This document shows, in pieces, positions 20,745-37,329 of a DNA stretch of 64,000 nucleotides (positions are counted from its first letter, which is position 1; each line of letters opens with the position of its first letter). This stretch comes from Bacteroidetes bacterium 47-18 (GTDB taxonomy: Bacteria; Bacteroidota; Bacteroidia; Chitinophagales; Chitinophagaceae): positions 94,696-158,695 of the forward strand of contig MKSF01000006.1 in assembly GCA_001897155.1 (NCBI GenBank), written 5' to 3'. The translations under genes were made by a program, and so were the position numbers. The notes under the pieces are model-generated. The model ran no database searches. It worked only from the letters and a program-made list of their open reading frames with translations, and was not told the origin of the DNA.

Positions 20745-21434
20745 TCACTGTCCTACAACTTTACGGTACCACTGCAATACCAGCTCCAGTTGCTGCTCCC
20801 TGGTCATATGGCTGTTATCCAGCACCAGTGCATCCGCGGCCTTTGTCAGCGGATCCTGCTCCCGGGTAGTATCTATATGGTCCCTGTGCCGGATATTGTC
20901 CCTCACTTCCTCCATGGTAATATCGGGCCGGGCCGCGCTCATTTCCAAGTAGCGACGCTGCACCCTTACTTCTTCCGAGGCGGTCATAAAAATCTTAAGA
21001 GGCGCATCCGGGAAGATAACGGTGCCTACATCCCTGCCATCCATGACCACGCCCCCCTGCCTGCCCATAGCCTGCTGCAAGGCTACGGCAAAGGTGCGCA
21101 CTTCCCTGATAGCCGCTACTTCGCTCACCACGTTGGCGATATCAAGGTCGCGGATACGGGCGCTCACATCACGACCGTTCAGGTACACCAGGCTCTGGAG
21201 CAGCTCCGGCCGGTTTTCCATGCGGATTTGTATATGCTGCAGGGCTTCCTGCATGCGTGCTTTGTCAGCCAGATCGATGCCCTGCTCAATGAAGTACAGG
21301 GTGATGGCCCTGTACATCGCACCGGAGTCAATGTAGGTGTATCCCAGCACTTTCGCCAGTCCTTTGGCAATAGTGCTTTTACCGCAGGAGGAATAACCGT
21401 CTATGGCTATATTGATTTTCTTGTGTGTTTCCAT
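20745..21434 (-). CDS. cmk: (d)CMP kinase
   Basis: INIAIDGYSSCGKSTIAKGLAKVLGYTYIDSGAMYRA P-loop/NMP-kinase signature. 229 aa. Confidence 0.85.
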   Translation of the reverse strand: METHKKINIAIDGYSSCGKSTIAKGLAKVLGYTYIDSGAMYRAITLYFIEQGIDLADKARMQEALQHIQIRMENRPELLQSLVYLNGRDVSARIRDLDIANVVSEVAAIREVRTFAVALQQAMGRQGGVVMDGRDVGTVIFPDAPLKIFMTASEEVRVQRRYLEMSAARPDITMEEVRDNIRHRDHIDTTREQDPLTKAADALVLDNSHMTREQQLELVLQWYRKVVGQ

Positions 21435-21507
21435 ATCAATAAAAAGTGCCTAATTCCAATACCTATCAGAATTAAGCACCTGTTATGTTATATTTTATAT
21501 GACCGTA

Positions 21508-23355
21508 TTAATAACCCCTGCCATCTTTTTTCTCCACAAAGTTCATGAAAGCTTTATTGGCTACCCTGTTGCCGCCGGGAGTAGGATAGTTGCCGGTAAA
21601 GTACCAGTCACCCCTGTTATTCGGACAGGCCATATGCAGGCCCTCGATGGTCTGGTAAATGATCTCCACGTCACATTCCACTTCTTCAGGATGCAGCAGC
21701 TCGGCAATCTTCCTGCTGATCTGCTCGGCTGTAAAGTTATCGTAAAAGCGCTTCACATAGTTTTCCTGTGTCAGCGCATTATTGCCTTCCGCGGTTTTAC
21801 AGAGCTGGTACACGTCTTCCACCACCTGCAGGGAGCCGTTATCCTTATGCAGGGCCAGCGCCGCCTGGAAGGCTATAAAGTCACCCATCCGGCTCATATC
21901 GATACCATAGCAGTCCGGGTAACGGATCTGCGGCGCGGAGGAAACGATCACGATCTTCCGGGGCCTGAGACGGGCCAGCATTTTAATGATGCTTTCCCTC
22001 AGCGTTGTACCCCTTACAATAGAATCGTCTATGACCACAAGGTTATCTTCGCCATGATTTACGGTTCCATAGGTAATATCGTACACGTGCTGCACCATTT
22101 CGTCCCGCGCGGAATCTTCCGTGATGAAGGTCCGGAGCTTTACATCCTTGATGGCGACCTTATCAATCCTGACTCGGCGATGTATCAGCTCCCTGATCTC
22201 ATCGTTCGTCATCTGGTCCCTGTTCTTCAGGATACGGTCTATCTGTATGTCCTTCATATAGTCTTCCAGGCCCTTGATAAGCCCGTAGAAAGATATCTCA
22301 GCCGTATTCGGTATAAAGGATACTACTGTATGCTTAAGGTCGTAATCAATGGATTTCAGCACGCTGCCGGTAAGGTTCTTGCCCAGCCTGATACGCTCTT
22401 TATAGATATCCGCATCGCTGCCCCTGCTGAAATAGATACGTTCAAAGCTGCAGGCCAGCTTTTCACCCGGCTCCAGTATCTGCTCTATCTGTACCTGCCC
22501 GTCCGCTTTTACGATAATGGCCTGTCCCGGCTCTATCTCTTTCACATCGGAGAGTTGCAGGTTAAAGGCCGTCATGATCGCAGGGCGCTCCGAGGCTGCC
22601 ACCACGATCTCATCATCTATATAGTAATATCCGGGTCGTATACCGTTCTTATCCCGCATCACGAAGCCGTCACCATTGCCTACCAGTCCGCCGCACAGGA
22701 AACCGCCGTCAAAGCCGGAAGCGGCTTTTTTCAGCACTTCCACCATATCCGGGTTCTCAATATCCTTTGTTTCTTCCTCGCACAGGTAATAGTGCACGGT
22801 GTCTATCATAGCCCCGAGATCACTGTTACGCATGGATTCCTTAGGCTCTTCAGGCAGGCGGCTGTACAATTCATCCGTATTCACCAGGTTGAAATTACCG
22901 GCCATTGCAAGATTCCTGGCAGGGTTGATATCGGATTTGACAAAAGGATGGCAGTATTTGACGCTGTTCTTACCCTGCGTACCGTACCGCAGATGCCCCA
23001 GCATGACCTCACCCATAAATCTCAGGTATCCTTTCATCAGGCCGGGATAGTTGCGGAGGTCCGGGTACATACGTTCCAGCTCTGATACCTCTTCCTGAAC
23101 GGAGTTGAAAATTTCCTTGATGGCGCCCTGTCCCGGGATACGCAGGCGGTGCAGGAACTGATATCCCGGCTCCACGTTCAGCTTCAGGGTAGCTATACCG
23201 GCACCGTCCTGGCCCCTGTTATGCTGCTTTTCCATCAGCAGATACAGCTTATTCAATCCGTAGAATGCTGTACCATACTTGCGATGATAATAAGAAATAG
23301 GTTTTCTTAGGCGGATGAATGCGAGCCCGCATTCGTGTTTAATAGCGTCTGACAT
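21508..23355 (-). CDS. purF: Amidophosphoribosyltransferase (class II glutamine amidotransferase, long Bacteroidetes-type form)
   Basis: N-terminal ...ECGLAFIR Ntn-hydrolase Cys. GQDGAGIA motif. PRTase domain. 615 aa. Confidence 0.75.
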   Translation of the reverse strand: MSDAIKHECGLAFIRLRKPISYYHRKYGTAFYGLNKLYLLMEKQHNRGQDGAGIATLKLNVEPGYQFLHRLRIPGQGAIKEIFNSVQEEVSELERMYPDLRNYPGLMKGYLRFMGEVMLGHLRYGTQGKNSVKYCHPFVKSDINPARNLAMAGNFNLVNTDELYSRLPEEPKESMRNSDLGAMIDTVHYYLCEEETKDIENPDMVEVLKKAASGFDGGFLCGGLVGNGDGFVMRDKNGIRPGYYYIDDEIVVAASERPAIMTAFNLQLSDVKEIEPGQAIIVKADGQVQIEQILEPGEKLACSFERIYFSRGSDADIYKERIRLGKNLTGSVLKSIDYDLKHTVVSFIPNTAEISFYGLIKGLEDYMKDIQIDRILKNRDQMTNDEIRELIHRRVRIDKVAIKDVKLRTFITEDSARDEMVQHVYDITYGTVNHGEDNLVVIDDSIVRGTTLRESIIKMLARLRPRKIVIVSSAPQIRYPDCYGIDMSRMGDFIAFQAALALHKDNGSLQVVEDVYQLCKTAEGNNALTQENYVKRFYDNFTAEQISRKIAELLHPEEVECDVEIIYQTIEGLHMACPNNRGDWYFTGNYPTPGGNRVANKAFMNFVEKKDGRGY

Positions 23356-23652
23356 AATTCGGACACAAAATTAATTCAATTTCCACAATTTATGAAAAAG
23401 GAGCAGAGGCCTGTTAACTATGTATAAATAAGTTATATTTATATAATTCCCATTATACCATTTACTTATTTTTTTGCCGTCCACCCGCCCGGGTTCGGGA
23501 GCGCCGGACGGCATCCCTTACAAAGGCACATCCTGTAACGGGGAGAGGCATTATTTACAAAAAGTTATTACCGGATATAACCGTTTTTTTACCATCAGAC
23601 TGAATATAAAATCTTAACTTTACGAGTATAATCACCCTAAAAATGTAAGCTT

Positions 23653-23949
23653 ATGTCGTTAAAAGAAACATTCACCGTAACGGGCGAAAATCTGCTTAAG
23701 AAGATCAAGGACCTGATAGCAGAAGGCAATGTCCGCAAAATAGTCATTTCAGACAAATCGGGTAAAGAGATGATGAGCTTCCCGGTAACTATCGGCGTGG
23801 TCGGCGTACTGCTGGCGCCCGTTTTCGCCGCCATCGGGGCCATAGCTGCCATGGTCAGCGACTGTACGGTCACCGTTGAGAAAGAGATGCCGGAAGAGCA
23901 GCCCCGGCAGGAAACCAACGGGGAGCTACCACCGCCGCCAGCGCATTAA
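23653..23949 (+). CDS. Small hypothetical protein with one hydrophobic helix (DUF4342-like)
   Basis: 98 aa. VTIGVVGVLLAPVFAAIGAIAAMV hydrophobic segment. Pro-rich C-terminus. Confidence 0.4.
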   Translation: MSLKETFTVTGENLLKKIKDLIAEGNVRKIVISDKSGKEMMSFPVTIGVVGVLLAPVFAAIGAIAAMVSDCTVTVEKEMPEEQPRQETNGELPPPPAH

Positions 23950-24087
23950 AGCGGCCTGTCACCCCTAATAGGCCAACAATAAAGCACCGAAAAAGTACAT
24001 CACACAGATGTATCCGATAAAAAATGAGGCTATTTAAAAAGCCGTCATTCCCAGCGAAACGTAGTGCAGCCGGGAACTATTATCAGT

Positions 24088-24130
24088 AAAGCAAAATCTC
24101 ATAATCTACCGATTATGAGATTTTGCTTTG
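24088..24130. other. Perfect 18-19 bp inverted repeat (AAAGCAAAATCTCATAAT-ctaccg-ATTATGAGATTTTGCTTT), putative stem-loop/terminator 3' of the giant AAA gene
   Basis: Direct inspection. No U-run follows. Confidence 0.4.
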
Positions 24131-24210
24131 CAAGAGTTTCTCCACGCCGGAATGCCGTAATGATACTTTTTGGCCCCCCCATTTTATACAATAATTTACC
24201 TGACCGTACC

Positions 24211-27200
24211 CTATTCAATATTCTTCAAAGCGTCCACCAGGCCTTTAAAGTTTTCATTGATGCCGGATAGCTGCACCAGGACCTGGGCGGTCTTATCATC
24301 ACCGCCCAGCCCGGCAAACTGGTTGTTCTTCCTGAATGTGGTAACAATATGCTTATAGCGCTCCTGCTCTTCGGGAGTGGCTATATGCATAATATGCCTG
24401 AGCTTGAGCAGATTGGCTTCCGCATCGGTGGTCAGCGTCTGCGCTTCGGCTTCATAGCTGGCAATGATCAGGTTCAAAAGCTCCTGCTCATTCATCAGGG
24501 GCACTATTTTCACCACCATCCTGTTCATGCTCCTGTACGAGCCCTGCAGCTTGAAGGCCGGCTCCGTACGGAACGCGTCATTCATCCCTGCGCTGGCTAT
24601 ATATAAATCGTTGACCTGCAAAACCACTTTCCTGACATACATTACATTTCGCAATACAACTATGGCATCGTCCACCTCCGCCCCGGTATAGGCAGCTTCC
24701 AGCTCCGGACGCAAATCCTCGTGCCGCTCCACATAGTCCACAAGCCTGTAAAAGTCTTTCATGCTCTTATGCCCTATCACCTGCAAATAACGGTTTTCGT
24801 TCATGGCATTTTCTACCAGGCTCAGGTCAAACAGGTGCCTGCTCTCCCCTGCCACATCACCCAGGTTATACACATCGGAACGGTTGGCCAGCATATCGGG
24901 GATCTTAAAGAGACTGCCGCTTTCGGTATAAGGATTGCCTGCCATCACCACACAGAAGCGTTTGCCCCGCAGGTCGTAGGTTTTGCTTACGCCTTCAAAG
25001 ATGCCGTCTATCTTACGCTGCCCGTCCGCCAGCGATATGAACTGCTGCAGGAATTCCGGGCTGCAATGCTGGATATCGTCCACATACAGCATCACGTTAT
25101 CAGCCATTTCAAAAGCAAGGTTCAGCTTCTCCAGCTCGACCCTGGCCCCCGAAGTTGTTGCTTCGGCAGGATCAATGCTGGTGATACGATGCCCGATAGT
25201 GGGACCGTTTATTTTTACAAAATGCAATCCCATCGTAGCGGACAGGTACTCCATCAGGGTGGTTTTACCATAACCCGGCGGCGAGATCAGCAGCAGCATC
25301 CCCATTCTCGCGGTACGCTTATCATCACCTACCGTACCCAATTGTTTGGCAAGGTTGGCGCCAATCATCGGGAAATATACTTCATTGATAAGCCTATTCC
25401 GCATAAAGGAGCTAAGCACCTTGGGCTGCATTTCCCTTATCTTCAGACGCTGCTCATAAGCGGCTACCAGGCTGCGTTTGGTAGCCTGGAAATCCTCGTA
25501 CAAAGGCACTGTTACCTGCCGGAAATGTGTCAGCTCTTCCATAAACTCATGATAACGGATGATATAGCCCTGCTCCGTTATGGTGGCATGATTGCCTTTC
25601 AGCCCGGTCAGCACCGTACTTTCGGCAGCAATATGCTCTTTGTAGCTGTCAGCCCCGAACAATACCAGGCAGGTAGCCTCATCTATATATGCCAGGTACG
25701 GCTCCGCGTTTTCCAGGGTCATGACATAGGCTTCCACCCAGTCCTGTATAATATAGAAACGCTCTATCAGGCTGTAAGATTCATTTTGAATATCCTGACG
25801 GAATACCTCTTCCTGGTGCTGCTGCTGCAGATGATGAATAAAATCTTTCTTTAGCTGCAATGCGGCGCTGCTGCAGGTAAAATAAGCCGGATCTTTCAGC
25901 TCATCCATCAGGTATGCTGCCATAGCTTCTACGGTAGCAGGAGGCAAATGATTATGTACCAAGGTAATATCCTGCACCAATACCCTGAAGGCCTGCGTAT
26001 CCTGGTACGCTGCTTGAAACAGCCGCCTGATCTTGTGAGCAGACTGTATCAGTTGTTCCAGCTTTTGCAACTGCTGCCCGGTCAATTGCTTCCAGAACAG
26101 TTGCGCCTGTACCCGGACAGCAACCGGGACCCTGAGAATACCCAGGCTGTCATCCAGCTTTATCAATGCGTCCGTAATAGCCACGGCATCCGCATTGTGC
26201 ACGCCTTTCACATAACCGCCGGCATAGTCCTGGTCTATCAGGCTGTCAATATATGCCGCAATATTCAGATCTCTTTTTTTGATATACTCCTGAAATGCCC
26301 GGAATGCCAGATAAGCACCTCTATATACTGCCGGGTTCTCCGAAATATAATCCTGGTCCCAGACGGCAATATGTTTCCGGAAAATACTCTCATCAACGGG
26401 CTGGTAAAAATTGGTGCCCATCAGATGATACATCAGGCGGTCGTTATGCTTTACGATCGTCAGTGCCAGCTCCTGCTTATTGACCGCAAATTTATACGGC
26501 CCCAGGGCAATGATATGATGCCCGTCCACAAACAGCTCATTTTTATCCTGCAGGGCCCTGATGGTATTTTCGCGGGCCAGCTTCAGGCTGTTCATCAGGT
26601 TTTCCGCCTTACCCACATCGCCCAGATCCTGCAGTTCCTGAGATAAGCTCCTGACCTTCTCTATCATCAGGTCACCGGCAAAAAAGCTGTATATCTCCTC
26701 ATTGGTGCCCAGCGTCAATGCTTTGCTCTCTATATTTTTCAGCACACGCAGGCCGATCTGCTCCAGGTTGCCGGTACGCTTGTTGATCTGCGCTACCAGC
26801 ATTTCCTTTTTGCCGTTGAATGCTTTTATAACCTCGTCCCGCTTGTCGGCAATCTTCAGGATAAAATCATCAAAGTCGGCAAACTTACTTTCCAGCTCCT
26901 CGATATGCACGCTGATCTTAGTGTAGTAGCTGTCGCATTTTTCTACCGAATCGGACAGATCCAGGAAGTTGACGATACTTTGCTCCAGTAAGGTGAGCTG
27001 CGCATGGAATTCCCCTACCGCCTCACCAGATCTCAGGCTGTTGATCCTGCGTGTCAGCGATGCCCTTACCTCATTCAAAGATGCGAACAGCACCGAAATA
27101 TTTTCAATGATCTTTGTGGTCTGCGTGGTATCTTCTATCTTAAGGCTGTTCAGTATATCTATCAGCAGCTCCAGTTGCCCGGCTATATCCATGCAGGCTT

Positions 27201-29040
27201 TTTCAATAGCCTGTGCATCTATCACTTTGGCAACACGCTCTATCGCCTGTCGCTGCTCGGCAATGTGCGCTTCATAAGGCTGCAAAGCATTGTCCTGCAA
27301 TAAGAACGTTACCGTTTCCTGCGACAACTGCCTATTGAATGCCTGTACCTGGTCCAGCATTTCACTGACTGCATCCTGGTCAATATACCGGACCTGCTGC
27401 AATTCAATAATACCACCCTGCGTAATACGAACCGTATTCAGTTGCTGCACCAGCTCATCCACCGTAGCATATTCTGCGTTCCGTATCTCCTGGTCCAGCG
27501 CCGCCACCTGAGCGCGTTTTTGTACCAGCTGCTCCACGGCAGACTGACGCTGTGCCTGCACTTTGGCAAATTCATCAATAGCCGTTTCGGCAATGGTCCC
27601 GATCTGCTTCAATGGTTCAGCAATACCATAAGTATCGCCGTTATTGATCCAGAAATAGCTGTCCAGAATATCTTTGGACAGCCTGGCAATATCCTCGTAC
27701 AGACCTTCATAGCTGTCTTCTTTCTTCAGCAACTGCAGGATCTCATACCCCTCCGACATCGCGCTGACGATATCTTTATTACCTATCTTGTACAATACAT
27801 TATCTTTCATCGCCTCATTTTCCACCAATGCGGCGGTATAAGGCGTCTGCCAGATCTGTACCTGGTGATGACGCACCGCTTCCTTTTCCGAACGGAAATA
27901 GATCAGCCTGCCATCTTTGAATATGGTAAAGCCATTGCAGATAATAGGCGTATTGACCTGCTGCTGTATCACATTGTACGACATCAGCACATAAGTATTG
28001 CTGTGCTTCTGGTAATATACATACAGGTAGTCCTCGCCATTCGGAGCCGCAACAGTACGCATATATTCCAGGTGGTCCATGCCGTTCTCAAAGAGCTTAT
28101 ACTCGCCATTCTGCAAATAGTATCCATTGGAGAATATCACTCCCTGCTGGTCGGGCAACAGGATACCGCTGTCCAGCAGGCTCGGGATATTATGCACCTC
28201 CCTGGTCCGAACATTGTATATAAACGCCCTGAAATCCTCCTGGTAAGGCTTTATTCTGACAGCAATGAGATTGCCCAGGTCCGCATAGTAATACTGCGCA
28301 TCATCCAGTTGCTGATCTTTGTTGGCAACCGGCTCAGAATAAATGCCCAGCCCCGTATCCGTATTGTCTTCGATCTTAAAGGTAATATCACCGCCGATAG
28401 CTTCTATATACACCTTATCCAGGATAGAGATATGCGGATGCAGGCCCAGCCTCCTGTCCTCCAGGGAGGTTCTTGTGAAATCAAAGCTGTACTGCTTTGC
28501 CTGCCTGACCTCATGAATGCTCCTGTCATCTATATATTTTAGCTGCTTACCATCTATATACCATTTAAACGCCTTCCTGTCCTCTACATTTTTAGAGCTC
28601 TGGAAGATCATATAGAGATAATGCTCCGTCCTGTAGAATTTGGAAAAGAAAGACTCCCGGTAATACCTGTACAGGTTTTTGAAATCCGTTACGAATTGCG
28701 CATCCGTTATCAGGTCAAGACTTACAGGCTCAAAATGATTGTCCGCAAACCTGTAGATGCTGAACACATCTCCCAGCTCTATTTCTTCGCGCAGTCCGAA
28801 GTGGACATTATAACCGAAAATACAGTATTCACCAAAGGCAATGATACCGCGGGCCACACCGTTATGTTCGGTAGTGATACGCTGATTGGCTATCAATGCA
28901 AACTGTTCCGTATTGAAAATTTCTTTCCTGCCTTCATTCAGCGCTGCCAGGCGCTCGCTTAAAATCACACTTTGCTCCTGTAACCTGTTGCGTATGATCT
29001 CATACGTCCCCGTATCTAAAGTAACTTTATTTTGTGGCAT
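24211..29040 (-). CDS. Giant (1609 aa) uncharacterised protein: N-terminal beta-rich domain, central ~500-aa coiled coil, C-terminal-third AAA+ ATPase of the MoxR/dynein-like (AAA_5) type
   Basis: Walker A GMLLLISPPGYGKTTL. Walker B NVMLYVDDIQ. Sensor-1/Arg-finger region CVVMAGNPYTESGSLFKIPDMLANRSDVY is comparable to ATQNP...P.ALLDRF of MoxR/midasin AAA_5. Long heptad-rich Q/E/L/K segment. Single uninterrupted ORF. Confidence 0.7.
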   Translation of the reverse strand: MPQNKVTLDTGTYEIIRNRLQEQSVILSERLAALNEGRKEIFNTEQFALIANQRITTEHNGVARGIIAFGEYCIFGYNVHFGLREEIELGDVFSIYRFADNHFEPVSLDLITDAQFVTDFKNLYRYYRESFFSKFYRTEHYLYMIFQSSKNVEDRKAFKWYIDGKQLKYIDDRSIHEVRQAKQYSFDFTRTSLEDRRLGLHPHISILDKVYIEAIGGDITFKIEDNTDTGLGIYSEPVANKDQQLDDAQYYYADLGNLIAVRIKPYQEDFRAFIYNVRTREVHNIPSLLDSGILLPDQQGVIFSNGYYLQNGEYKLFENGMDHLEYMRTVAAPNGEDYLYVYYQKHSNTYVLMSYNVIQQQVNTPIICNGFTIFKDGRLIYFRSEKEAVRHHQVQIWQTPYTAALVENEAMKDNVLYKIGNKDIVSAMSEGYEILQLLKKEDSYEGLYEDIARLSKDILDSYFWINNGDTYGIAEPLKQIGTIAETAIDEFAKVQAQRQSAVEQLVQKRAQVAALDQEIRNAEYATVDELVQQLNTVRITQGGIIELQQVRYIDQDAVSEMLDQVQAFNRQLSQETVTFLLQDNALQPYEAHIAEQRQAIERVAKVIDAQAIEKACMDIAGQLELLIDILNSLKIEDTTQTTKIIENISVLFASLNEVRASLTRRINSLRSGEAVGEFHAQLTLLEQSIVNFLDLSDSVEKCDSYYTKISVHIEELESKFADFDDFILKIADKRDEVIKAFNGKKEMLVAQINKRTGNLEQIGLRVLKNIESKALTLGTNEEIYSFFAGDLMIEKVRSLSQELQDLGDVGKAENLMNSLKLARENTIRALQDKNELFVDGHHIIALGPYKFAVNKQELALTIVKHNDRLMYHLMGTNFYQPVDESIFRKHIAVWDQDYISENPAVYRGAYLAFRAFQEYIKKRDLNIAAYIDSLIDQDYAGGYVKGVHNADAVAITDALIKLDDSLGILRVPVAVRVQAQLFWKQLTGQQLQKLEQLIQSAHKIRRLFQAAYQDTQAFRVLVQDITLVHNHLPPATVEAMAAYLMDELKDPAYFTCSSAALQLKKDFIHHLQQQHQEEVFRQDIQNESYSLIERFYIIQDWVEAYVMTLENAEPYLAYIDEATCLVLFGADSYKEHIAAESTVLTGLKGNHATITEQGYIIRYHEFMEELTHFRQVTVPLYEDFQATKRSLVAAYEQRLKIREMQPKVLSSFMRNRLINEVYFPMIGANLAKQLGTVGDDKRTARMGMLLLISPPGYGKTTLMEYLSATMGLHFVKINGPTIGHRITSIDPAEATTSGARVELEKLNLAFEMADNVMLYVDDIQHCSPEFLQQFISLADGQRKIDGIFEGVSKTYDLRGKRFCVVMAGNPYTESGSLFKIPDMLANRSDVYNLGDVAGESRHLFDLSLVENAMNENRYLQVIGHKSMKDFYRLVDYVERHEDLRPELEAAYTGAEVDDAIVVLRNVMYVRKVVLQVNDLYIASAGMNDAFRTEPAFKLQGSYRSMNRMVVKIVPLMNEQELLNLIIASYEAEAQTLTTDAEANLLKLRHIMHIATPEEQERYKHIVTTFRKNNQFAGLGGDDKTAQVLVQLSGINENFKGLVDALKNIE

Positions 29041-29084
29041 AAGCTGTTGTTTGTTTTTTTACTTTCCAAAAACCGTCTTAATAT

Positions 29085-30935
29085 TCAAGATAACACTTCT
29101 TTTTATAGGATTTAGGAGATTTCTCCATTGCGCTACGCTACAGTCGAAATGACAAGTAATACATCTGGCGTAAGAGCGAATCAGTAACAGACCACCCTAT
29201 GTCATTTCGAGCGAAGTGAAACGGAGTCGGGAAATCTCCTTGCATTTCCAACCAAAAGCTGAAACTTCTGCCTCTACCTAGTCCAGAGACTTTCCATTGC
29301 GCTACGCTACAGTCGAAATGACAAACGGCATGGCTACAGTAAGAAGCGAACCAATAGCACACCTCTTATGTCATTTCGAGCGGAGTGAAACGGAGTCGAG
29401 AAATCTCCTTGCATTTCCAACCAAAAGCTGAAACTTCTGCCTCTACCTAGTCCAGAGACTTTCCATTGCGCTACGCTACAGTCGAAATGACAAGTAGCAT
29501 GTTTAGAGTGAGAAGCGAACCAACAGCCCCCTTATGTCATTTCGAGCGAAGTGAAACGGAGTCGAGAAATCTCCTACATTTCCAACCAAAAGCTGCATCA
29601 CCTGAGCAAGCTAAATACATCATTCATCACTTCATCATTAAAGAATTTCCATTCACTATTCACATTATCAATTAATGTATTCTTCTTGGCTCTGCTCCAT
29701 TTTTTTAGCTGTTTTTCCCTCTCAATAGCAAGTGATATATTTTCAAATACCTCATAATACACCAGCAAAACACAATTGTATCTATCTGAAAAACTATTTA
29801 CAATTAAATGCTGCTCATGTTCATACAATCTTCGTTTCAGATCATTCGTTACCCCTATATACAGAACAGTTTTTGCCTTATTTGTCAATATATATAGAAA
29901 GTATGATTGCATGGTCGAGTTTTTTAATTTACAACCTACCTCTCCTGAATGGTCTTTGAGATTTCTCCATTCCGCTACGCTACAGTCGAAATGACAAGTA
30001 GCATGTTTAGAGTGAGAAGCGAACCAACAGCACACCTCTTATGTCATTTCGAGCGGAGTGAAACGGGGTCGAGAAATCTCCTTGCATTTCCGACCAAACA
30101 CTGACCTTCTGATCTTACCTGGTTTAGAGATTGCCCCATTTCGCTATACTACAGTCGAAATGACAGAGTAACACCTGGGGCAAGAACGAATCAGCAGCAG
30201 ACTCACCCTATGTCATTTCGAGCGGAGTGAAACGGAGTCGAGAAATCTCCTACATTTCCAACCAAAAGCTGAAACTTCTGCCCTATATAGTCCAGAGATT
30301 TCTTCATTCCACTACGCTGCAGTCGAAATGACAGAGTAGCACCTGGGGTAAGAACGAATCCTCACCCTATGTCATTTCGAGCGAAGTGAAACGGAGTCGA
30401 GAAATCACCTTGCATTTCCAACCAAAAGCTGAAACTTCTGCCTCTATCTAGTCCAGAGATTTCTCCATTCCGCTACGCTACAGTCGAAATGACAAGTAGC
30501 ATGTTTAGAGTGAGAAGCGAACCAATAGCCCCCTTATGTCATTTCGAGCGAAGTGAAACGGAGTCGAGAAATCTCTTTGTATTTCCAACCAAACACTGCA
30601 CTTCTAACCTACATAATCTAGAGATTCCTCCATTTCGCTACGCTACAGTCGAAATGACAAGTAGCATGTTTAGAGTGAGAAGCGAACCAATAGTAGCCCC
30701 CTTATGTCATTTCGAGCAAAGTGAAACGGAGTCGAGAAATCTCCTTGCATTTCCAACCAAAAGCTGAAACTTCTGCCTCTATCTAGTCCAGAGATTTCTC
30801 CATTAAGCTACGCTGCAGTCGAAATGACAAATAGTACATTCTGGTGTAAGAACAAATCAGTAGCAGACTCACCCTATGTCATTTCGAGCAAAGTGAAACG
30901 GAGCTGAGAAGTTTATTATTACCTGTGCTTTAAGC
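29085..30935. repeat. Structured repeat array D: about 9 tandem ~168-bp composite units (GGAGATTTCTCCATTGCGCTACGCTACAGTCGAAATGACAAG - ~40 nt variable loop - TTATGTCATTTCGAGCGAAGTGAAACGGAGTCGAGAAATCTCC - linker TTGCATTTCCAACCAAAAGCTGAAACTTCTGCCTCTACCTAGTCCAGAGAC), interrupted by a GIY-YIG gene
   Basis: Core TGTCATTTCGAGC recurs at ~29208, 29369, 29535, 30040, 30210, 30370, 30535, 30705 and 30880. The unit ends (GGAGATTTCTC / GAGAAATCTCC; CAGTCGAAATGACA / TGTCATTTCGAG) are reverse complements, giving a long imperfect hairpin. Confidence 0.8.
29598..29912 (-). CDS. GIY-YIG nuclease family protein (small, ~104 aa)
   Basis: MQSYFLYILTNKAKTVLYIGVTNDLKRRLYEHEQ...REKQLKKWSRAKK has the GIY-YIG core. 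The longer ORF (to 30035) reads through a repeat unit, so the start is set at the Met preceding the domain. AT-rich. Inserted at a repeat-unit boundary. Confidence 0.7.
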   Translation of the reverse strand: MQSYFLYILTNKAKTVLYIGVTNDLKRRLYEHEQHLIVNSFSDRYNCVLLVYYEVFENISLAIEREKQLKKWSRAKKNTLIDNVNSEWKFFNDEVMNDVFSLLR

Positions 30936-30979
30936 ATGCTCTGCTAAAATGATGATCTTCCAATTAAGAGCGCACACCT

Positions 30980-33022
30980 CTACCCCAGCTTCCTGTTTGA
31001 CCAGCCCAGGTTGCTGACCATATTCATCAGGTTCATAATGAACGGACGGTCTTCGTCTGAGCTTTGCTGCTGCATCTTTAAGAGGATACCGGATATGGTC
31101 AGGTTCTTCAGATCGTTGGTGCTGACATTATATTTCTCAGCAAAATCCCTGATCTTATCCATCAGATCGCCGTTATTGGTACCATCTCCTATCAATGCCT
31201 GCTTGATATGCGTAGCATGCTCGCTTTCATTGATGAGCCTGTCAAATCCTTTAGCATTGGAAATCTGGTTCACAATATTCTGGAAGAACATACTTTCACC
31301 ACCTACAATATCTATTTTCGCTGTCTTCATCGCTTCACCCAGCACCTCAGCCTGCGCATCTGCAATATCTTTCTGGATGCGTATCTGCGCTAATGCGATG
31401 TCCTTGTCCTTCTGTACCAGTATCTTGAACTCTTCGTGCTCTTTACCCACACCATCCAGCTTTTTCATAGCTTCCGCTTTCTCTTCGATACCTTTGGCTT
31501 CCGCCAGCGCTTTCTCTCTTAAGATATCGGCTTCCATCATACCCTCTTTGCGTTTGGCGTCTGCCATTTTCTCTACAATAGTAGCCTCTACTATACCCTG
31601 GCGCTCTTCTGCAGCCGCTTTTGCCAGCATCACCTCTGCCTCGGACAGACCGATGGTCGCTTCTTCACGGGCCTGGGCCTCTGCCAGTATCTTACGGGCT
31701 TCCGCCTGCTTGGCTGCCGCTTCTTTACGGGCCTCAGCATCTATCAGCATCTGCCTGGCTTTCTCTTCTGCTGCTCTTTTCTCAGCTTCCGCCGCTTTCA
31801 CGGTATGGATCAGCTTTTCTTCCGCTGCCCTTGACGCTTCGGTAATACCTACCGTTTTGCTTCTTTCCACTTCACGGAATGCTTCTACGTCCTTAATGCT
31901 TTGCTGCTCTTCCACCACGCCTTTTTCCAGCTTCACACGCTCCCTGATGACGTCCTGTATGTTCTTACGCTCTACCTCTACCGTTTTCTCTTTCTCTATC
32001 TGTGCCAGGGTCACGATCTTTTCACGCTCCGTTACTTCCAGCATCCTGTCTTTTTCCACACGCTCCGTTTCCACGGCATCTGTCCTGAGCTTACTCTTCT
32101 CCGCTATGATGATCTGGCGCAGCTTGTTCTCTTGCTGGATAGCCAGCTGCTCTTCCGTTTTGATCTTTACGGTCTGGGCTTTGAGCCTTTCCTCTTCCCG
32201 CACTTTTACGATCTCTGCTTCTTCACGCGCCTTGATATTATCAATTTCACGCTTTTGCTTTTCTTCTTTCTCTGCCATCTGGCGCTCCAGCTCCAGGATA
32301 GCTTCCCGTGCTTCCACATTCTGCTTTTTGATCACTTTCTCTTCTTCCCTGCGGATCAGGTTCGCTTTGATATTTTGTGCCGCGGTCAGCTCCGTGATTT
32401 TCTTGATACCTTCCGAATCCAGGATATTTTCCGGGCTCAGGTAGCGCAGCTCCGTCTGTTCCAGGTAGTCAATGGCACAGTCATCCAGGATATAGCCGTT
32501 CAGGTCCGTACCGATCACGTTCAATATCTCGTCCCGGAATTCACGACGCGCCTCGTACAGCTCCGTGAAGTCGAATTTCTTACCGGCCGTTTTCAGCGCC
32601 TCGGAGAATTTAGCTTCAAACAGGTGCGTCAGCGTAGAGACATCACTGGCCCGCTCACAACCTATCACCTGCGCCACATTCAGCACATCGTCCACATTTT
32701 TATTGACACGCACAAAGAACGCCACTTTGATATCCGCACGGATATTATCCCTACAGATCAGGCCGTCATGCTCCATGCGGTCTATCTGCAGCTTTTTGAC
32801 GGAGATATCCATGATCTCCATCTTATGAAGAATGGGAATGACATACATCCCTTTGTTAAAGGCCACCTTGCTGCCACCCACACCGGTCCTTACAATGGCC
32901 TTGCCCTGCGGTATCTTCTTATAAAAAGTAGCGAAGGCAAATAAAACAATAAGCAATATAAACACCACACCGCCAATCGTCATCAGGGTTAAACCGCCCA
33001 GGTTATCTAAAAATGCTCCCAT
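30980..33022 (-). CDS. Flotillin family protein (SPFH/band-7 domain plus long E/K/A-rich coiled coil), YqiK-like
   Basis: N-terminal TM helix, then SPFH domain (GKAIVRTGVGGSKV...VIPILHKMEIMDISVKKLQ...), then ~350 aa EA-rich coiled coil. 680 aa. Confidence 0.85.
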   Translation of the reverse strand: MGAFLDNLGGLTLMTIGGVVFILLIVLFAFATFYKKIPQGKAIVRTGVGGSKVAFNKGMYVIPILHKMEIMDISVKKLQIDRMEHDGLICRDNIRADIKVAFFVRVNKNVDDVLNVAQVIGCERASDVSTLTHLFEAKFSEALKTAGKKFDFTELYEARREFRDEILNVIGTDLNGYILDDCAIDYLEQTELRYLSPENILDSEGIKKITELTAAQNIKANLIRREEEKVIKKQNVEAREAILELERQMAEKEEKQKREIDNIKAREEAEIVKVREEERLKAQTVKIKTEEQLAIQQENKLRQIIIAEKSKLRTDAVETERVEKDRMLEVTEREKIVTLAQIEKEKTVEVERKNIQDVIRERVKLEKGVVEEQQSIKDVEAFREVERSKTVGITEASRAAEEKLIHTVKAAEAEKRAAEEKARQMLIDAEARKEAAAKQAEARKILAEAQAREEATIGLSEAEVMLAKAAAEERQGIVEATIVEKMADAKRKEGMMEADILREKALAEAKGIEEKAEAMKKLDGVGKEHEEFKILVQKDKDIALAQIRIQKDIADAQAEVLGEAMKTAKIDIVGGESMFFQNIVNQISNAKGFDRLINESEHATHIKQALIGDGTNNGDLMDKIRDFAEKYNVSTNDLKNLTISGILLKMQQQSSDEDRPFIMNLMNMVSNLGWSNRKLG

Positions 33023-33067
33023 AAGTTAAAAAGATTGTTTAAAATGGTTAAATGATATTTTAGTATT

Positions 33068-33727
33068 TCAGTCATTCAATACGTTATGGATATTGATATC
33101 CGGCTCCACCAGGTAATATCTTCCGCTATCCGCATCGCTCATCAGCGTGACTTCCGCGCCGTACGGGATAGCCCCGCCGCTTTTGCTTTTCACGAGCACC
33201 CTGATCACATCATTGAGGATGACCACTTCCGCATATCCCAGCTTATCTCCCGATATGGCCGATTTCATCCGGGCGGTCCTGCCGATGAGCTCATGCTGCT
33301 CTTCTCCGTTATATCCCATTGATCTGTATATCCTGATTAAAGGCCGTGTTGCCAGCCGGGTTAAAAAATAAGCGAGGATGAAGACAGGTATCAGTATCAA
33401 TCCTGATTTCCAGCCCCAGCTCCCTATATTCCAGATCATGGAGGAAGCCAGGGTAAACATCCATGCAATGAACTTAAAAGTGCTCAATACTACCATTACA
33501 GGCACTTTTCCCACGTTGATAAACGCCAGCGCCCTGGAGAAGAAAGAGGGCCCTTCCACTCCTCCCTGGGCATCCACATCCACTCCTGCCTCCAGGTCCA
33601 TATCCAGGTCACCCAGGAAATCTCCCGAAATAAAGGTCAGCAGCCAGTAAATGGCAGACAGGCTTACCAGCACTGTCATGATCGCATTCGGCAGCGGATG
33701 AAAAAAGTAATTTAAGATGTCAGCCAT
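33068..33727 (-). CDS. YqiJ-like / NfeD-type inner-membrane protein (DUF1449-like), flotillin partner
   Basis: Multi-TM N-terminal part plus a C-terminal soluble beta-rich segment (KLGYAEVVILNDVIRVLVKSKSG..GAEVTLMSD). Immediately upstream of flotillin, as in E. coli yqiJK. Confidence 0.55.
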   Translation of the reverse strand: MADILNYFFHPLPNAIMTVLVSLSAIYWLLTFISGDFLGDLDMDLEAGVDVDAQGGVEGPSFFSRALAFINVGKVPVMVVLSTFKFIAWMFTLASSMIWNIGSWGWKSGLILIPVFILAYFLTRLATRPLIRIYRSMGYNGEEQHELIGRTARMKSAISGDKLGYAEVVILNDVIRVLVKSKSGGAIPYGAEVTLMSDADSGRYYLVEPDINIHNVLND

Positions 33728-33748
33728 AGTATTGATAATTTTAAGATA

Positions 33749-34447
33749 TTACATGCCCAGCTTTTGCTTTAAGGCCGCCAGCTCTTTGTCCACCGACAGG
33801 CTATCATCTTTCAATATCCTGTCGATCTCGCTTTTGCTGTCCTGCTTTTCATGGGCGATCTCGCCATATGCCCTAGCCAGGGCTTCCTGGTCATCGGCTT
33901 TCTCTTTCATCCGTTCCAGCATCACGATAGTACTGTCACTGTCAATCTGGGCTATTTGCTTATTGACCTGCTGGGTGGCGGCGCTTACCTTCACCCGTGC
34001 GCGCAATGTCTTAAGCTCTTTTTCCCATTTGGCGAGGTTCTCCTGCAGCACGCGGATATTCTTCTGCATCTCTTCCACGGTATGCTCATGCATCACCGCC
34101 TGCTGCTCCAGGTCCAGGGCATCCTCGGCATATTGGCGCTTTAACGATAAGGCTTCCCGGGCGAGCTGCTCTGCCTTTCCTGCTTCCAGTTCCCTGTGCT
34201 GTGCCTTTTGCAGTATCAGCACCGCCTTTTCACCGTATGCGTCAGACTGCTTGATGCACTGCTCCTGCTCGTTGCGGGTCCTGAGCGCCAGGGCCTTTAT
34301 TTTTGCATACGCTTCGGTCGCATTGGCGAGGTCGTCCCTTAATTCGCGGAGACCCTGTTCCGTCATCCTGACCGGATCTTCCATCCGTTCGACAGCGGCA
34401 TGTATCTCCGCCTGTCCTATCCTGAAAAGCCTTTTAAAGATATTCAT
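33749..34447 (-). CDS. pspA: PspA/IM30 (Vipp1) family protein, ESCRT-III-like
   Basis: MNIFKRLFRIGQAEIHAAVERMEDPVRMTEQGLRELRDDL... is collinear with E. coli PspA ([40 protein letters not shown]). All-helical. 232 aa. Confidence 0.85.
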   Translation of the reverse strand: MNIFKRLFRIGQAEIHAAVERMEDPVRMTEQGLRELRDDLANATEAYAKIKALALRTRNEQEQCIKQSDAYGEKAVLILQKAQHRELEAGKAEQLAREALSLKRQYAEDALDLEQQAVMHEHTVEEMQKNIRVLQENLAKWEKELKTLRARVKVSAATQQVNKQIAQIDSDSTIVMLERMKEKADDQEALARAYGEIAHEKQDSKSEIDRILKDDSLSVDKELAALKQKLGM

Positions 34448-34459
34448 AACAATCAGTTT

Positions 34460-34858
34460 TTATAGTTTAGAAAATTCAATTATTTTATCAGCATATTCGT
34501 GCAAAAGCAGCCCCAGGGCGTTTAAAGCACTTTCAAATTCATTATAATCCAGGTTCTCCAGTTGCATGGTATAGCGGTACAATACCTTGTCACCTTCCTC
34601 GTTGATAACGAAGGCCCCGTGCAGCATATCCCGGTTCTTCTGCAGCAGCGCCTTAAATACGGCCACATTATCACTGGTAAAAGCGAACAGGTAGTATTCC
34701 ATGATCAGCACCGGAGGCACCACGCCGAGTATCAGGTGCCGGATGCCGTCCTGCTCGTTCTCAATTTTGATGATGCCGGATGCCTCATCCCTATACAGCA
34801 CTTTGTATTCTGCCTGCTTTACAAAATCCAGGATCTTATTGATATACATTACTCTCAT
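34460..34858 (-). CDS. YbjN-domain protein (T3SS-chaperone-like fold, putative sensory transduction regulator)
   Basis: 132 aa. Sequence pattern typical of the YbjN family. First gene of the pspA/flotillin operon. Confidence 0.55.
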   Translation of the reverse strand: MRVMYINKILDFVKQAEYKVLYRDEASGIIKIENEQDGIRHLILGVVPPVLIMEYYLFAFTSDNVAVFKALLQKNRDMLHGAFVINEEGDKVLYRYTMQLENLDYNEFESALNALGLLLHEYADKIIEFSKL

Positions 34859-34924
34859 CTACTGTATATTTTTTGATTTAAAAATAATCTTTATCTTTAC
34901 GCTATCAAAATTAGCAAAATAAAA

Positions 34925-34953
34925 TTAAAATGCAAATAATTTTAGCATTTTAA
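34925..34953. promoter_or_regulatory. Palindromic candidate operator TTAAAATGC-N11-GCATTTTAA in the divergent XRE-regulator / ybjN-pspA promoter region
   Basis: 9-bp perfect inverted arms around an AT-rich centre, 20 bp upstream of the regulator ATG. Confidence 0.4.
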
Positions 34954-34972
34954 TTTGAAAAAATTCCACGGC

Positions 34973-35650
34973 ATGACCAAGATAGGCAGTAACATCAAGA
35001 AAATAAGGAAAACAAAGGGACTGACGCAGCAATCCTTTGCAGACCTGTTTGATATAAGCAGGGGCAATATATCCTCCTACGAGGAGGACCGGGCAGAGCC
35101 CAGGATCGAAACGATCATTAAAATTGCTAATTATTTTAGCATACCATTAGAAAGCCTGCTAACAAAAGAATTGACGGTTAATGAGATCCTGCAGTATAAT
35201 ACGGACAGGCTGCTGGAAGAGGAGCATAAATTGTCCACGCTGAAGATAAAAGTGGTGCCTTATATCAATGAGGATATATTGGTGAAGGGCCTTCACGGTG
35301 AATTAAGCTTTGAAGATTTTGATGCCTATCCTCTTATTAAAATACCGGAAACCAACCCGTTCAGGGTGATCGCGCTGAGCTTCAACAGCAATATCCCTCA
35401 TCACCAGTTGTTCGAAAAATACACGTCCAACGACATACTTTTCTTTGTGCATGTAAGCACTCATAATATTCACCTGGTCAACAAAAAAGCCGGCCTCCTG
35501 CTGGCTCCCCACCAGCTCACACTGGGGCAGTTCCAGCAGGAGGACGGCATTATACAGCTCACGCTGAACCAGCAGCAGCAGGAAACCGTTGATCTTGCAA
35601 AGTCCAACCGCTACTGGAAATTATTCGCCACATACCAGCATACCAAATAA
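34973..35650 (+). CDS. XRE-family helix-turn-helix transcriptional regulator with C-terminal uncharacterised domain
   Basis: IRKTKGLTQQSFADLFDISRGNISSYEEDRAEPRIETIIKIANYFSIPLESLL (HTH_3/XRE). The ORF track starts at a TTG at 34955. The ATG at 34973 is preferred. Confidence 0.65.
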   Translation: MTKIGSNIKKIRKTKGLTQQSFADLFDISRGNISSYEEDRAEPRIETIIKIANYFSIPLESLLTKELTVNEILQYNTDRLLEEEHKLSTLKIKVVPYINEDILVKGLHGELSFEDFDAYPLIKIPETNPFRVIALSFNSNIPHHQLFEKYTSNDILFFVHVSTHNIHLVNKKAGLLLAPHQLTLGQFQQEDGIIQLTLNQQQQETVDLAKSNRYWKLFATYQHTK

Positions 35651-35657
35651 AGCATAA

Positions 35658-35707
35658 GGGCGCTTAAAGGATCAGCCCGGTTCTCCTTTAAGCACCCTGT
35701 ATTTTTA
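35658..35707. terminator. Bidirectional terminator between convergent genes (13-bp stem GGGCGCTTAAAGGA/TCCTTTAAGCACCC, then TGTATTTTTA)
   Basis: Inverted repeat with one mismatch followed by a T-rich tract. Confidence 0.5.
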
Positions 35708-37108
35708 GCCCAGCCCGATCGTTTCATGGAGGGCAGGTATCAGCACATCCCTGAACCCTTTCCTGATCAGCCTGGTCTTGAAGGCTTCCTGTACATCATA
35801 TTCGCCATGGACCAGGATCAGCTTTTCCACCAGGGACGGGTCCTGGCAGGCCAGCCACTGGCTGATCTCCCCGTAATCCCCATGGGCACTAAGGCTGTCA
35901 ATTTCAGCGATCTCCGCCTGCACTTCATGATCCACACCGAAAATACCCACCTTCTGCGGCCTGTTCTTCAGCCGGCCGCCCAGGCTCTGCGGCTCACAAT
36001 AGCCCACCAGCAGTATGGTATTCCTGGCCGACGAAATATTATTGGCTATATGATGCTTTACCCTGCCCGCTTCCGCCATGCCCGAGGCGGAGATGATCAC
36101 CATAGGCCGCTTATCGCTGTTGAGCGATTTGGAGGTCTCCACATCATCTACAAGGACCAGGCCCCTGAACATAAAAGGATCATCATCCTTTTCCAGCAGC
36201 CTCCGTACGTCATCATTAAATAATTCCGGGAATCTTTTCACCGTCTGCGTCGCCTCTACCGACAGCGGGCTGTCCACCACATACAGGAGATCGGGCAGGC
36301 GGTTTTCCTGCTCCAGCTGGTTAAGGGCATACAGCAATTCCTGTGTCCTGCCCACGCTGAAGGAAGGGATGATCAGCTTGCCTTTCTTATGCAGGCAGGT
36401 GTGCTCAATATGCTGCAGCAGCATCTCCGCGGGAGGCTGTGTCAGCGGGTGCAGCGTATCGCCATAGGTAGATTCCAGGATCAGCACTTCCGCCTGGGGG
36501 AAGGGCTGCGGTGATTTCAGCAGGGGATCTCCATACCTGCCCACATCGCCGCTGAAAGTAAGGCGCGTGGTCTTGCCGTTTTCCTTGATCTTCAGGTGGA
36601 CAGCCGCGCTGCCGATGATATGACCCACATCCGTGTACATCAGCTCCACCTGGTCATCCAGCTTTATCCATTCACCATAGGGCATTATTTCCAGTAGCGC
36701 TACCGCACGGTGCACATCCTCTATCGTGTACAGGGGCTTAGCCAGCGGCTTACCCTGCTCCTGCCTGATCCTGTTCACATATCTTATATCCGCTTCCTGT
36801 ATATTGGCGCTGTCCCTGAGCAGTATCGCTCCAAGGGCCTCTGTTGCGGGCGTACAGTACACCTTCCCGTTAAAGCCTTCCTTCACCAGCTTGGGCAGCA
36901 GCCCTATATGGTCAATATGCGCGTGAGATAAAATGACATAGTCCACTTCCGACGGCTCAAACCCGAACTCACTATTCAGCGCTATCGTCTCTTTTCCCAG
37001 TCCCTGGAACATACCGCAGTCCAGCAGGATCTTTTTATCGGGATGAATATGTAATAAATGCTTGGAACCGGTTACCGTTCTTGCCGCTCCATGAAAAGAT
37101 ATCTTCAT
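35705..37108 (-). CDS. MBL-fold metallo-hydrolase with beta-CASP/RNA-specificity domain (RNase J / CPSF-like)
   Basis: MKISFHGAARTVTGSKHLL..LDCGMFQG. HAHIDH motif (ILSHAHIDHIG). C-terminal beta-CASP. The 567-aa ORF extension upstream lacks homology and is hydrophobic junk, so the start is set at 37108. Confidence 0.7.
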   Translation of the reverse strand: MKISFHGAARTVTGSKHLLHIHPDKKILLDCGMFQGLGKETIALNSEFGFEPSEVDYVILSHAHIDHIGLLPKLVKEGFNGKVYCTPATEALGAILLRDSANIQEADIRYVNRIRQEQGKPLAKPLYTIEDVHRAVALLEIMPYGEWIKLDDQVELMYTDVGHIIGSAAVHLKIKENGKTTRLTFSGDVGRYGDPLLKSPQPFPQAEVLILESTYGDTLHPLTQPPAEMLLQHIEHTCLHKKGKLIIPSFSVGRTQELLYALNQLEQENRLPDLLYVVDSPLSVEATQTVKRFPELFNDDVRRLLEKDDDPFMFRGLVLVDDVETSKSLNSDKRPMVIISASGMAEAGRVKHHIANNISSARNTILLVGYCEPQSLGGRLKNRPQKVGIFGVDHEVQAEIAEIDSLSAHGDYGEISQWLACQDPSLVEKLILVHGEYDVQEAFKTRLIRKGFRDVLIPALHETIGLG

Positions 37109-37329
37109 ACCTAAAAGTTTGCAACTAAAGTAATACATTAATTCCAGAAAATATGCCGCAACTATATTTATCGCACCAGGACACCGCGAATATTCCCCAA
37201 CCCTTCCCGGACGTGCTTTCACCCTGTCTTTACCTGAAGCGCAATAACATATGCACAGCAATAAATTGCTATACATATATATAACAACAATTGGCATCGT
37301 TTTTGTTATTAAACTTGTAAAATATTGAT

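Follow-up and report, generated by a model that had tools for sequence, protein, structure and literature searches.

A DUF3686/DUF7902-family AAA+ ATPase of Bacteroidetes bacterium 47-18 as a putative remodeller of flotillin/YqiJ membrane assemblies

We analysed a 64,000-nucleotide stretch of Bacteroidetes bacterium 47-18 DNA (contig MKSF01000006.1, positions 94,696 to 158,695; hereafter the window), in which positions 24211..29040 of the minus strand carry the gene of a DUF3686-family AAA+ ATPase of 1609 amino acids (aa) and 184 kDa, the last gene of its operon. The protein is an ordinary, typical member of the DUF3686/DUF7902 family, which NCBI names 'DNA repair ATPase'. The constant partner of this ATPase in genomes is flotillin/YqiJ rather than PspA, the link to flotillin being tighter than the link to PspA. 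We favour, with modest confidence, the reading that it is a MoxR-type enzyme which remodels membrane assemblies of flotillin/YqiJ (and PspA), and that a propeller-like N-terminal domain would act as a built-in adaptor.

Family membership and conserved gene neighbourhood

One open reading frame (ORF) of 1609 codons spans the whole interval, and its product has a mass of 184.4 kDa and an isoelectric point of 5.25, in agreement with the single polypeptide of about 180 kDa claimed in a preliminary description of this DNA. The ATG at 29040 is the true start: residues G11 to L20, which lie upstream of an alternative GTG, are mostly invariant among relatives; some database entries begin at this GTG, 24 codons further in, and give a product of 1585 aa. 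The 90%-identity cluster that holds the ATPase has a single entry with a name, 'AAA family ATPase [Bacteroidetes bacterium 47-18]'.

The Pfam profile DUF3686 (PF12458, 'ATPase involved in DNA repair') matched aa 27-463 from profile position 2 to 448 of 448 (E=2.9e-160; 534 bits for a cut-off of 25), and DUF7902 (PF25472) matched aa 584-667 (E=4e-25; 88 bits for a cut-off of 26). Both profiles are above their gathering scores, with DUF3686 N-terminal, and the pair is common to all relatives listed. Database searches, each scoring 8000 candidates, returned more than 3400 relatives. A search of 1.84 billion proteins with the N-terminal domain alone gave 643 representative clusters (50% identity), of which 216 had E<=1e-30. 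The beta domain was N-terminal in all the full-length matches listed for this query (1600-2036 aa). Sequence searches of the PDB for a solved structure of a relative gave only P-loop-level matches.

The gene context was compared in 80 loci from GTDB species representatives, whose ATPases are 41-61% identical to the query, the identity being near-full-length in all loci not broken by a contig end. In 62 of the 65 loci whose flank was long enough, a flotillin gene on the same strand preceded the ATPase by no more than 3 kb (gap 14-2418 nt, median about 165), and 56 of these 65 had a YqiJ-like gene. PspA was found in 35 of 64 loci, mostly labelled Bacteroidota lineages, and CesT in 34 of 64. The order 'HTH (divergent), CesT, PspA, YqiJ, flotillin, ATPase' was observed in 34 loci, again mostly labelled Bacteroidota lineages, and the order 'YqiJ, flotillin, ATPase' in loci labelled Bacteroidota lineages, Planctomycetota, Verrucomicrobiota, Kiritimatiellota, Omnitrophota, Desulfobacterales and Clostridia. 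This distribution speaks for flotillin, YqiJ and the ATPase acting as one functional unit, to which PspA and CesT are a frequent add-on. The taxonomic spread and the conservation of context had been proposed as a check in the preliminary description, which did not mention the operon; the check shows the flotillin neighbour to be conserved over many phyla.

Beyond YqiJ, flotillin, PspA, CesT and HTH, no neighbour family was conserved in the 80 loci. A VWA gene was not conserved among them either, and no Pfam match to VWA was obtained in the 10 neighbouring ORFs scanned in the window (20745 to 37408); the earlier claim that no VWA partner gene is nearby therefore stands. Downstream of the ATPase no gene was conserved across the 80 related loci, and because of this the ATPase closes the operon.

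The operon and its ATPase have already been described by comparative genomics (Ravi et al. 2024, mSystems 9:e00847-23, PMC11237479). According to the available portion of that article, the operon joins CesT/Tir-PspA to three more genes, shortened flotillin-YqiJ(-ATPase) operons have a wider distribution, and chaperone-like, ESCRT-like membrane dynamics are proposed from the gene neighbourhoods. The window operon has all the genes, on the minus strand, of this PspA-flotillin-YqiJ-AAA+ operon. In length class, domain order and operon nothing essential differs from the published family, as far as this portion describes it, the window locus being distinguished by a 1.9-kb repeat array with a GIY-YIG ORF between flotillin and ATPase. 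The novelty implied by the preliminary description is thus not upheld, considering the full-length DUF3686/DUF7902 match, the number of relatives and this published account. Relative to that portion of the article, the MoxR assignment at fold level, the invariance of the rod length and the recognition of flotillin/YqiJ as the constant partner go beyond the published description.

Domain architecture and the AAA+ module

Two AlphaFold2 models were obtained from an input alignment of 88 sequences (40-79% identity to the query), one of aa 1-850 with a mean predicted local distance difference test score (pLDDT) of 87.3, and one of aa 820-1609 with a pLDDT of 89.7 and a predicted template-modelling score of 0.79. 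In the models, an N-terminal helix (aa 10-41; 28918..29013, this and the following positions all on the minus strand), highly conserved from G11 to L20, is followed by a divergent propeller-like beta domain forming the core of DUF3686 (aa 46-400; 27841..28905), a segmented helical rod containing DUF7902 (aa 415-836; 26533..27798), a small five-stranded beta domain (aa 843-881; 26398..26514), a middle, mostly helical domain (aa 888-1200; 25441..26379), the AAA+ alpha/beta domain (aa 1205-1395; 24856..25428) with its putative lid helices (24511..24855), and a C-terminal helical domain (aa 1511-1609; 24214..24510). Conservation is highest in the AAA alpha/beta domain (score 0.88) and lowest in the middle helical domain (0.50). 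Variation in length is limited to the middle domain (280-379 aa) and the C-terminus (49-506 aa).

The order proposed earlier, a beta domain, a long helical region and a single MoxR-like AAA+ module, is confirmed by these models. The coiled coil of about 500 aa placed between them is not: the models show a segmented rod of fixed length, then a small beta domain and a separate helical domain. The AAA module does lie C-terminal to the helical region, and not directly after it as had been described, the domains of aa 843-881 and aa 888-1200 standing between them. A second, degenerate AAA module at aa 886-1200 was considered and rejected, this region being almost wholly helical in the model; likewise, a CbbQ_C Pfam match at aa 990-1044 (E=0.002, under the cut-off), inside the variable helical domain, was taken as a chance match.

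The AAA+ module carries the following motifs. The Walker A motif SPPGYGKTT (aa 1253-1261; 25258..25284; within the longer stretch LLLISPPGYGKTTL, aa 1249-1262) and the Walker B motif MLYVDDIQH (aa 1317-1325; 25066..25092), of the D-D type, are unchanged in every aligned relative. The sensor-1 region MAGNPY (aa 1366-1371, with N1369; 24928..24945) belongs to the sequence CVVMAGNPY at aa 1363-1371. It is followed by PDMLANRSD (aa 1381-1389; 24874..24900), part of FKIPDMLANRSDVY at aa 1378-1391, in which R1387, just before strand 5, is a candidate arginine finger. All the motifs named in the preliminary description (Walker A, Walker B and the CVVMAGNPY region) were located in the translation. Beyond the putative lid helices come a long helix (aa 1453-1484) and a coil segment with the invariant QGSYR motif (aa 1499-1503), in which R1503 is a candidate sensor 2. 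In a set of 12 distant relatives, extending down to 29% overall identity, SPPGYGKT, DDIQH, GNPY and QGSYR were identical in all 12, PDMLxNR differed at x only, and the AAA domain measured 190-195 residues. The enzyme thus looks active, and its module is intact rather than degenerate; a degenerate module was one of the outcomes that would have refuted the preliminary description.

Walker A, Walker B, sensor-1, an arginine finger candidate and the alpha/beta plus lid fold place the module within the AAA+ superfamily. The Pfam matches to PF00004 and AAA_5, both on aa 1249-1372, are weak and above their cut-offs. By fold, the closest structures are CbbQ (6l1q), NorQ (9qh4), midasin and dynein; sequence identity to the MoxR-type members is only 13-17%. 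The model also presents a beta-hairpin at the pre-sensor-1 position, between helix 3 and strand 4 (aa 1343-1356; 24973..25014), with strands at aa 1343-1348 and 1351-1356 and a pLDDT of about 90. These features support a MoxR-like, or AAA_5, module at the level of the predicted fold, in line with the original AAA_5 call. As to the pre-sensor-2 insert that repositions the lid in this group, the model has the long helix of aa 1453-1484 before QGSYR, and CbbQ superposes as a rigid body on 238 of 267 residues at 3.6 A. The classical AAA clade (Cdc48, Vps4, FtsH) was considered and rejected, as the module does not show its combination of marks, namely the lack of a pre-sensor-1 hairpin, two arginines in the second region of homology and a best similarity to PF00004 members.

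In comparison with CbbQ, NorQ and RavA, the ATPase is roughly five times larger, with about 1200 residues before the AAA module, has no VWA/MIDAS partner gene, and differs in its D-D Walker B and in the lack of a helix-2 hairpin in the model. Midasin/Rea1 and dynein are likewise AAA_5 motors with a long helical lever or linker and a distal binding domain. Nevertheless, they have six AAA modules per chain whereas this protein has one, so that a ring would need oligomerisation; their binding domain is a C-terminal MIDAS or a microtubule-binding stalk and not an N-terminal propeller-like domain, and no homology to them is detectable outside the AAA module.

The N-terminal domain contains about 27 strands between aa 48 and 398 which, together with the DUF3686 match, bears out the beta-rich N-terminal domain of about 450 aa described at first. 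Foldseek searches against the PDB gave propeller matches (CyRPA, YncE, Groucho WD40, peptidase propellers) with E-values from 1e-5 to 1e-3 and target-normalised template-modelling scores (TM-scores) of 0.3-0.39. Because these matches are weak and are all propellers, the domain is best described as a predicted divergent, propeller-like repeat. The available portion of Ravi et al. 2024 (PMC11237479) names 'beta-propeller repeats', in agreement with this assignment. Several polar motifs of the domain are invariant: HPHIS, GGDxTxK, DQxLDD, NGED and HHxxQxWQTP. At the residue level, R173-S174-x-H176-E177, H203-x-S205, G217-D218-x-T220-x-K222, D242-Q243-x-L245-D246-D247, N334-G335-E336-D337, H392 and W397-Q398-T399-P400 were invariant. 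Such a pattern would suit a ligand-binding, metal-binding or catalytic site better than a simple protein-protein surface.

The rod is modelled as eleven helices of 10-58 residues each. The stretch aligned to aa 470-836 measured 365 or 366 residues in all of 76 closer relatives, and the distance from W464 to G847 (window 26500-27651) was 377-384 residues down to 29% identity (loci L001-L082). Other helical parts of the ATPase differ by about 100 residues or more among relatives. The rod thus appears to accept no insertions or deletions. A co-variation in length between the rod and the flotillin coiled coil, as might be expected if the two were matched, was not seen (rho=0.05), the rod being constant at 365-366 aa.

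As to the long relatives, many of those from the second search measure 1750-1900 aa, and the named ones are mostly labelled Planctomycetota or Desulfobacterota. Part of their excess length is a C-terminal extension, carrying in some cases ankyrin repeats (P0121, aa 1792-1887) or TPR repeats (P0228, aa 1757-1811); long forms also occur at L057 and similar loci. One full-length member (P0198, 1711 aa, 42% identity) comes from the proteome of the dinoflagellate Durusdinium trenchii in eukprot, where it could be due to bacterial contamination or horizontal transfer.

The operon in the window and its variants

Upstream of the ATPase, on the same strand, lies the flotillin-like gene (30980..33022), whose product of 680 aa has an N-terminal transmembrane segment, an SPFH/Band_7 domain (Band_7 E=1.6e-11 with aa 1-240) and a long charged coiled coil. 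Scanned whole, this protein gave no Pfam or NCBIfam match, and none by phmmer against PDB sequences. Its coiled coil, rich in E, K and A, may suppress the Band_7 score, and such flotillin genes may go unannotated. Then follow, still on the minus strand, the gene of a YqiJ-like membrane protein, a flotillin partner of the NfeD type (33068..33727; YqiJ_N E=1.4e-5), that of PspA/IM30, a bacterial ESCRT-III protein (33749..34447; E=2.1e-37), and that of a CesT/Tir-like chaperone, which is the first gene of the operon (34460..34858; CesT_Tir_1 E=1.6e-42). A divergent gene on the plus strand (34955..35650; HTH_3 E=1.8e-13) encodes an XRE-type helix-turn-helix protein, which has a C-terminal domain of about 150 aa with no assigned family. 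Of the 35 related loci with a member of this family, 34 have it divergent to CesT and one (L026) has it beside YqiJ; it is likely a dedicated regulator, and is not mentioned in the available portion of Ravi et al. 2024 (PMC11237479).

Between flotillin and ATPase (29041..30979), the window contains a lineage-specific insertion formed by a repeat array and a GIY-YIG ORF. The array consists of about 11 tandem copies of a palindromic unit of ~168 nt, and within each unit two arms of about 40 nt (TGTCATTTCGAGCGAAGTGAAACGGAGTCGAGAAATCTC and its complement), 42-45 nt apart, form an imperfect inverted repeat. The GIY-YIG nuclease ORF is located inside it, at 29598-30035 on the minus strand. The array has no counterpart in the related loci, and Rfam gave nothing at gathering score in 22000-36000, the array included. 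It looks like an array of elements of the miniature inverted-repeat transposable element or repetitive extragenic palindromic type, possibly spread by the GIY-YIG gene. A scan for promoters and terminators, which covers sigma-70 promoters only, gave match counts close to those of shuffled sequence. On the other side, a small DUF4342 gene (23653-23949, plus strand) is convergent with the ATPase gene at its 3' end; none of the 80 related loci gave a tblastn match to it (E<=1e-5).

Relatives of the ATPase are also present in records labelled Proteus mirabilis, Vibrio campbellii, Pseudomonas fluorescens pQBR103 and Streptomyces, all of them organisms amenable to genetics. The Streptomyces locus reads hypothetical, flotillin, 'DNA repair ATPase'. 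In pQBR103 of P. fluorescens SBW25 (L081, 85437-104350), the genes are PspA, rhomboid, DUF2491, DUF350, DUF1190, glutathionylspermidine synthase, hypothetical, SPFH and 'DNA repair ATPase'. The flotillin-ATPase pair is here fused to a PspA/polyamine cluster, a separate operon type in the available portion of Ravi et al. 2024 (PMC11237479).

Proposed mechanism, alternatives and significance

On the favoured reading, the ATPase would be the energy-consuming component of a conserved membrane-stress module. The core would consist of the flotillin (SPFH), its YqiJ/NfeD-type partner and the ATPase, to which most Bacteroidota-labelled loci, that of the window among them, add PspA, the CesT-like protein and the divergent XRE-type protein. 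The single MoxR-type AAA+ modules would assemble into a ring, as those of CbbQ, NorQ and RavA do, and ATP turnover would remodel, assemble or dismantle the flotillin/YqiJ cage, the clients enclosed in it, or PspA polymers recruited there. The propeller-like domain would be the adaptor on the target, replacing the separate VWA/MIDAS protein of other MoxR ATPases, and the rod of fixed length would keep this adaptor at a set distance from the motor, by a logic like that of the midasin linker and MIDAS domain. The ring, the choice of substrate, the part of the propeller-like domain as adaptor and the direction (assembly or disassembly) are what we infer here. Ravi et al. 2024 (PMC11237479) drew a comparable functional conclusion from gene neighbourhoods, and a 2025 review (PMC7619361) cites Scholz et al. 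2021, in whose title an SPFH protein is said to be needed for linking PspA to the membrane in B. subtilis. The mechanical work on a large substrate suggested by the preliminary description is retained in part: a membrane complex fits the operon context, and the nucleoid that it named as another option is without support. A similar pairing of an AAA+ machine with an SPFH-family cage at the inner membrane is FtsH-HflK/HflC, according to the available part of PMC13220708. FtsH, however, is a classical AAA protease that is anchored in the membrane and enclosed by the cage, whereas the fold of the present ATPase is MoxR-like, it gave no protease match in Pfam, and no obvious hydrophobic transmembrane stretch was seen in its sequence by eye, no predictor having been run.

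Several observations weigh against this reading. The MoxR clade assignment is not airtight, because the helix-2 beta-hairpin is not in the model, where aa 1279-1296 form a confident, highly conserved loop and one short helix, and because the N-terminal half or first third of the module resembles by sequence classical AAA proteins (Rix7, Afg2, VAT; E about 3e-6). The Walker B motif is D-D rather than the usual D-E; a D-D Walker B is found in slow, switch-like AAA+ proteins such as DnaA, and because of it the ATPase may work as a nucleotide switch and not as a processive motor. The structural matches of the beta domain are weak, which makes its binding function conjectural. Three loci (L047, L067, L072) lack a flotillin gene in the 10 kb upstream of the ATPase. 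In the window the 1.9-kb array parts the ATPase from flotillin, and their co-transcription here is presumed. The gene neighbourhood shows a functional link, and not the substrate or the direction of the reaction. Finally, literature searches (DUF3686; 'DNA repair ATPase' or MoxR with flotillin; SPFH with AAA+ and NfeD) found no experimental work, and a P. aeruginosa SPFH paper made no mention of such an ATPase. The preliminary description would have withdrawn its proposal for an already characterised family; this one is catalogued and described in silico, with no experimental characterisation found.

A more ambitious form of the proposal, which we put forward tentatively and regard as rather unlikely, is that the family is the missing energy source for the remodelling of flotillin and PspA (ESCRT-III), a MoxR ring whose rod of fixed length (377-384 residues across the family) would place the propeller-like adaptor at a defined point of the flotillin/YqiJ cage and which would open or dismantle the cage or extract clients from it.

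Among the alternatives, PspA might be the true substrate, the ATPase dismantling or recycling PspA polymers in the manner of Vps4 while flotillin/YqiJ only mark the site. PspA and the CesT-like gene do belong to the operon here and to about half of the related loci (35/64 for PspA), PspA heads the pQBR103 cluster, and the role is vacant, since according to a 2025 review (PMC7619361) a Vps4-like ATPase appears absent in bacteria. As with Vps4 and ESCRT-III, an AAA+ ATPase is genetically coupled to an ESCRT-III family protein at a membrane. The ATPase nevertheless falls into another AAA+ clade by fold ranking, has no Pfam MIT match and is coupled much more tightly to flotillin than to PspA, and we consider this alternative improbable.

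We give a similarly low probability to a nucleotide-gated scaffold or tether, in which the protein would be mainly structural, its coat-like propeller and rod joining flotillin cages to something else, and the AAA+ module would be a slow switch for oligomerisation. The D-D Walker B, present in every aligned relative, and the strictly conserved rod length would suit it, and the longest Foldseek alignments were with propeller-plus-helical coat or scaffold chains (IFT-A, the Nup84 complex, Elp1, clathrin). Their TM-scores of 0.06-0.13 are, however, too low for more than 'propeller followed by helices'. Moreover, the sensor-1, candidate arginine finger and sensor-2-like motifs are unchanged in the aligned relatives, as real hydrolysis would predict, and the nearest folds are those of working remodellers.

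It is still less probable that the operon is a membrane defence module, anti-phage or of another conflict type, with the ATPase as its sensor or effector. Large nucleoside triphosphatases beside membrane-protein genes are common in defence systems; the ATPase has a weak PADLOC match to mad8 on the P-loop (E=5.9e-4), in scans where NCBIfam and PADLOC otherwise gave nothing meaningful, some relatives bear the ankyrin or TPR extensions, and one relative is on a large plasmid. Against this, the neighbours match no defence family in PADLOC-DB 2.0, the generic HTH aside. There is no relative in 50,697 phage records, and the 13 found in 72,556 records of a plasmid collection include 6 on replicons of more than 1 Mb. 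Conflict systems usually vary far more in sequence and length than this family does, and the Pfam scan of the ATPase gave no nuclease or toxin match.

The database label itself, which would make the protein an SMC/Rad50-like DNA repair ATPase, agrees with the NCBI and Pfam names, the long helical regions and weak RuvB P-loop matches (E about 1e-3), yet it is very improbable, as the protein has a contiguous AAA+ domain (aa 1205-1440) and a beta-domain N-terminus in place of the split ABC-type head of SMC, Rad50 and SbcC, no DNA-binding or nuclease domain by Pfam, conserved neighbours that are all membrane-stress proteins, and RuvB matches confined to the P-loop and far under the family cut-offs (19 vs 282 bits).

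The window locus is thus a typical family member, with no new architecture and no discovery in itself, the architecture of the family being unusual all the same. The widespread annotation 'DNA repair ATPase' is unsupported and probably wrong. The assembly, opening and recycling of flotillin cages and PspA/ESCRT-III polymers in bacteria is an unsettled question in the field. As a large, highly conserved AAA+ protein encoded beside flotillin/YqiJ in many phyla, and beside PspA in most Bacteroidota-labelled loci, the ATPase is an obvious candidate for this task. If the family does provide the energy for this remodelling, it would be a functional bacterial counterpart of Vps4 or midasin, built from other parts and needing no VWA partner.

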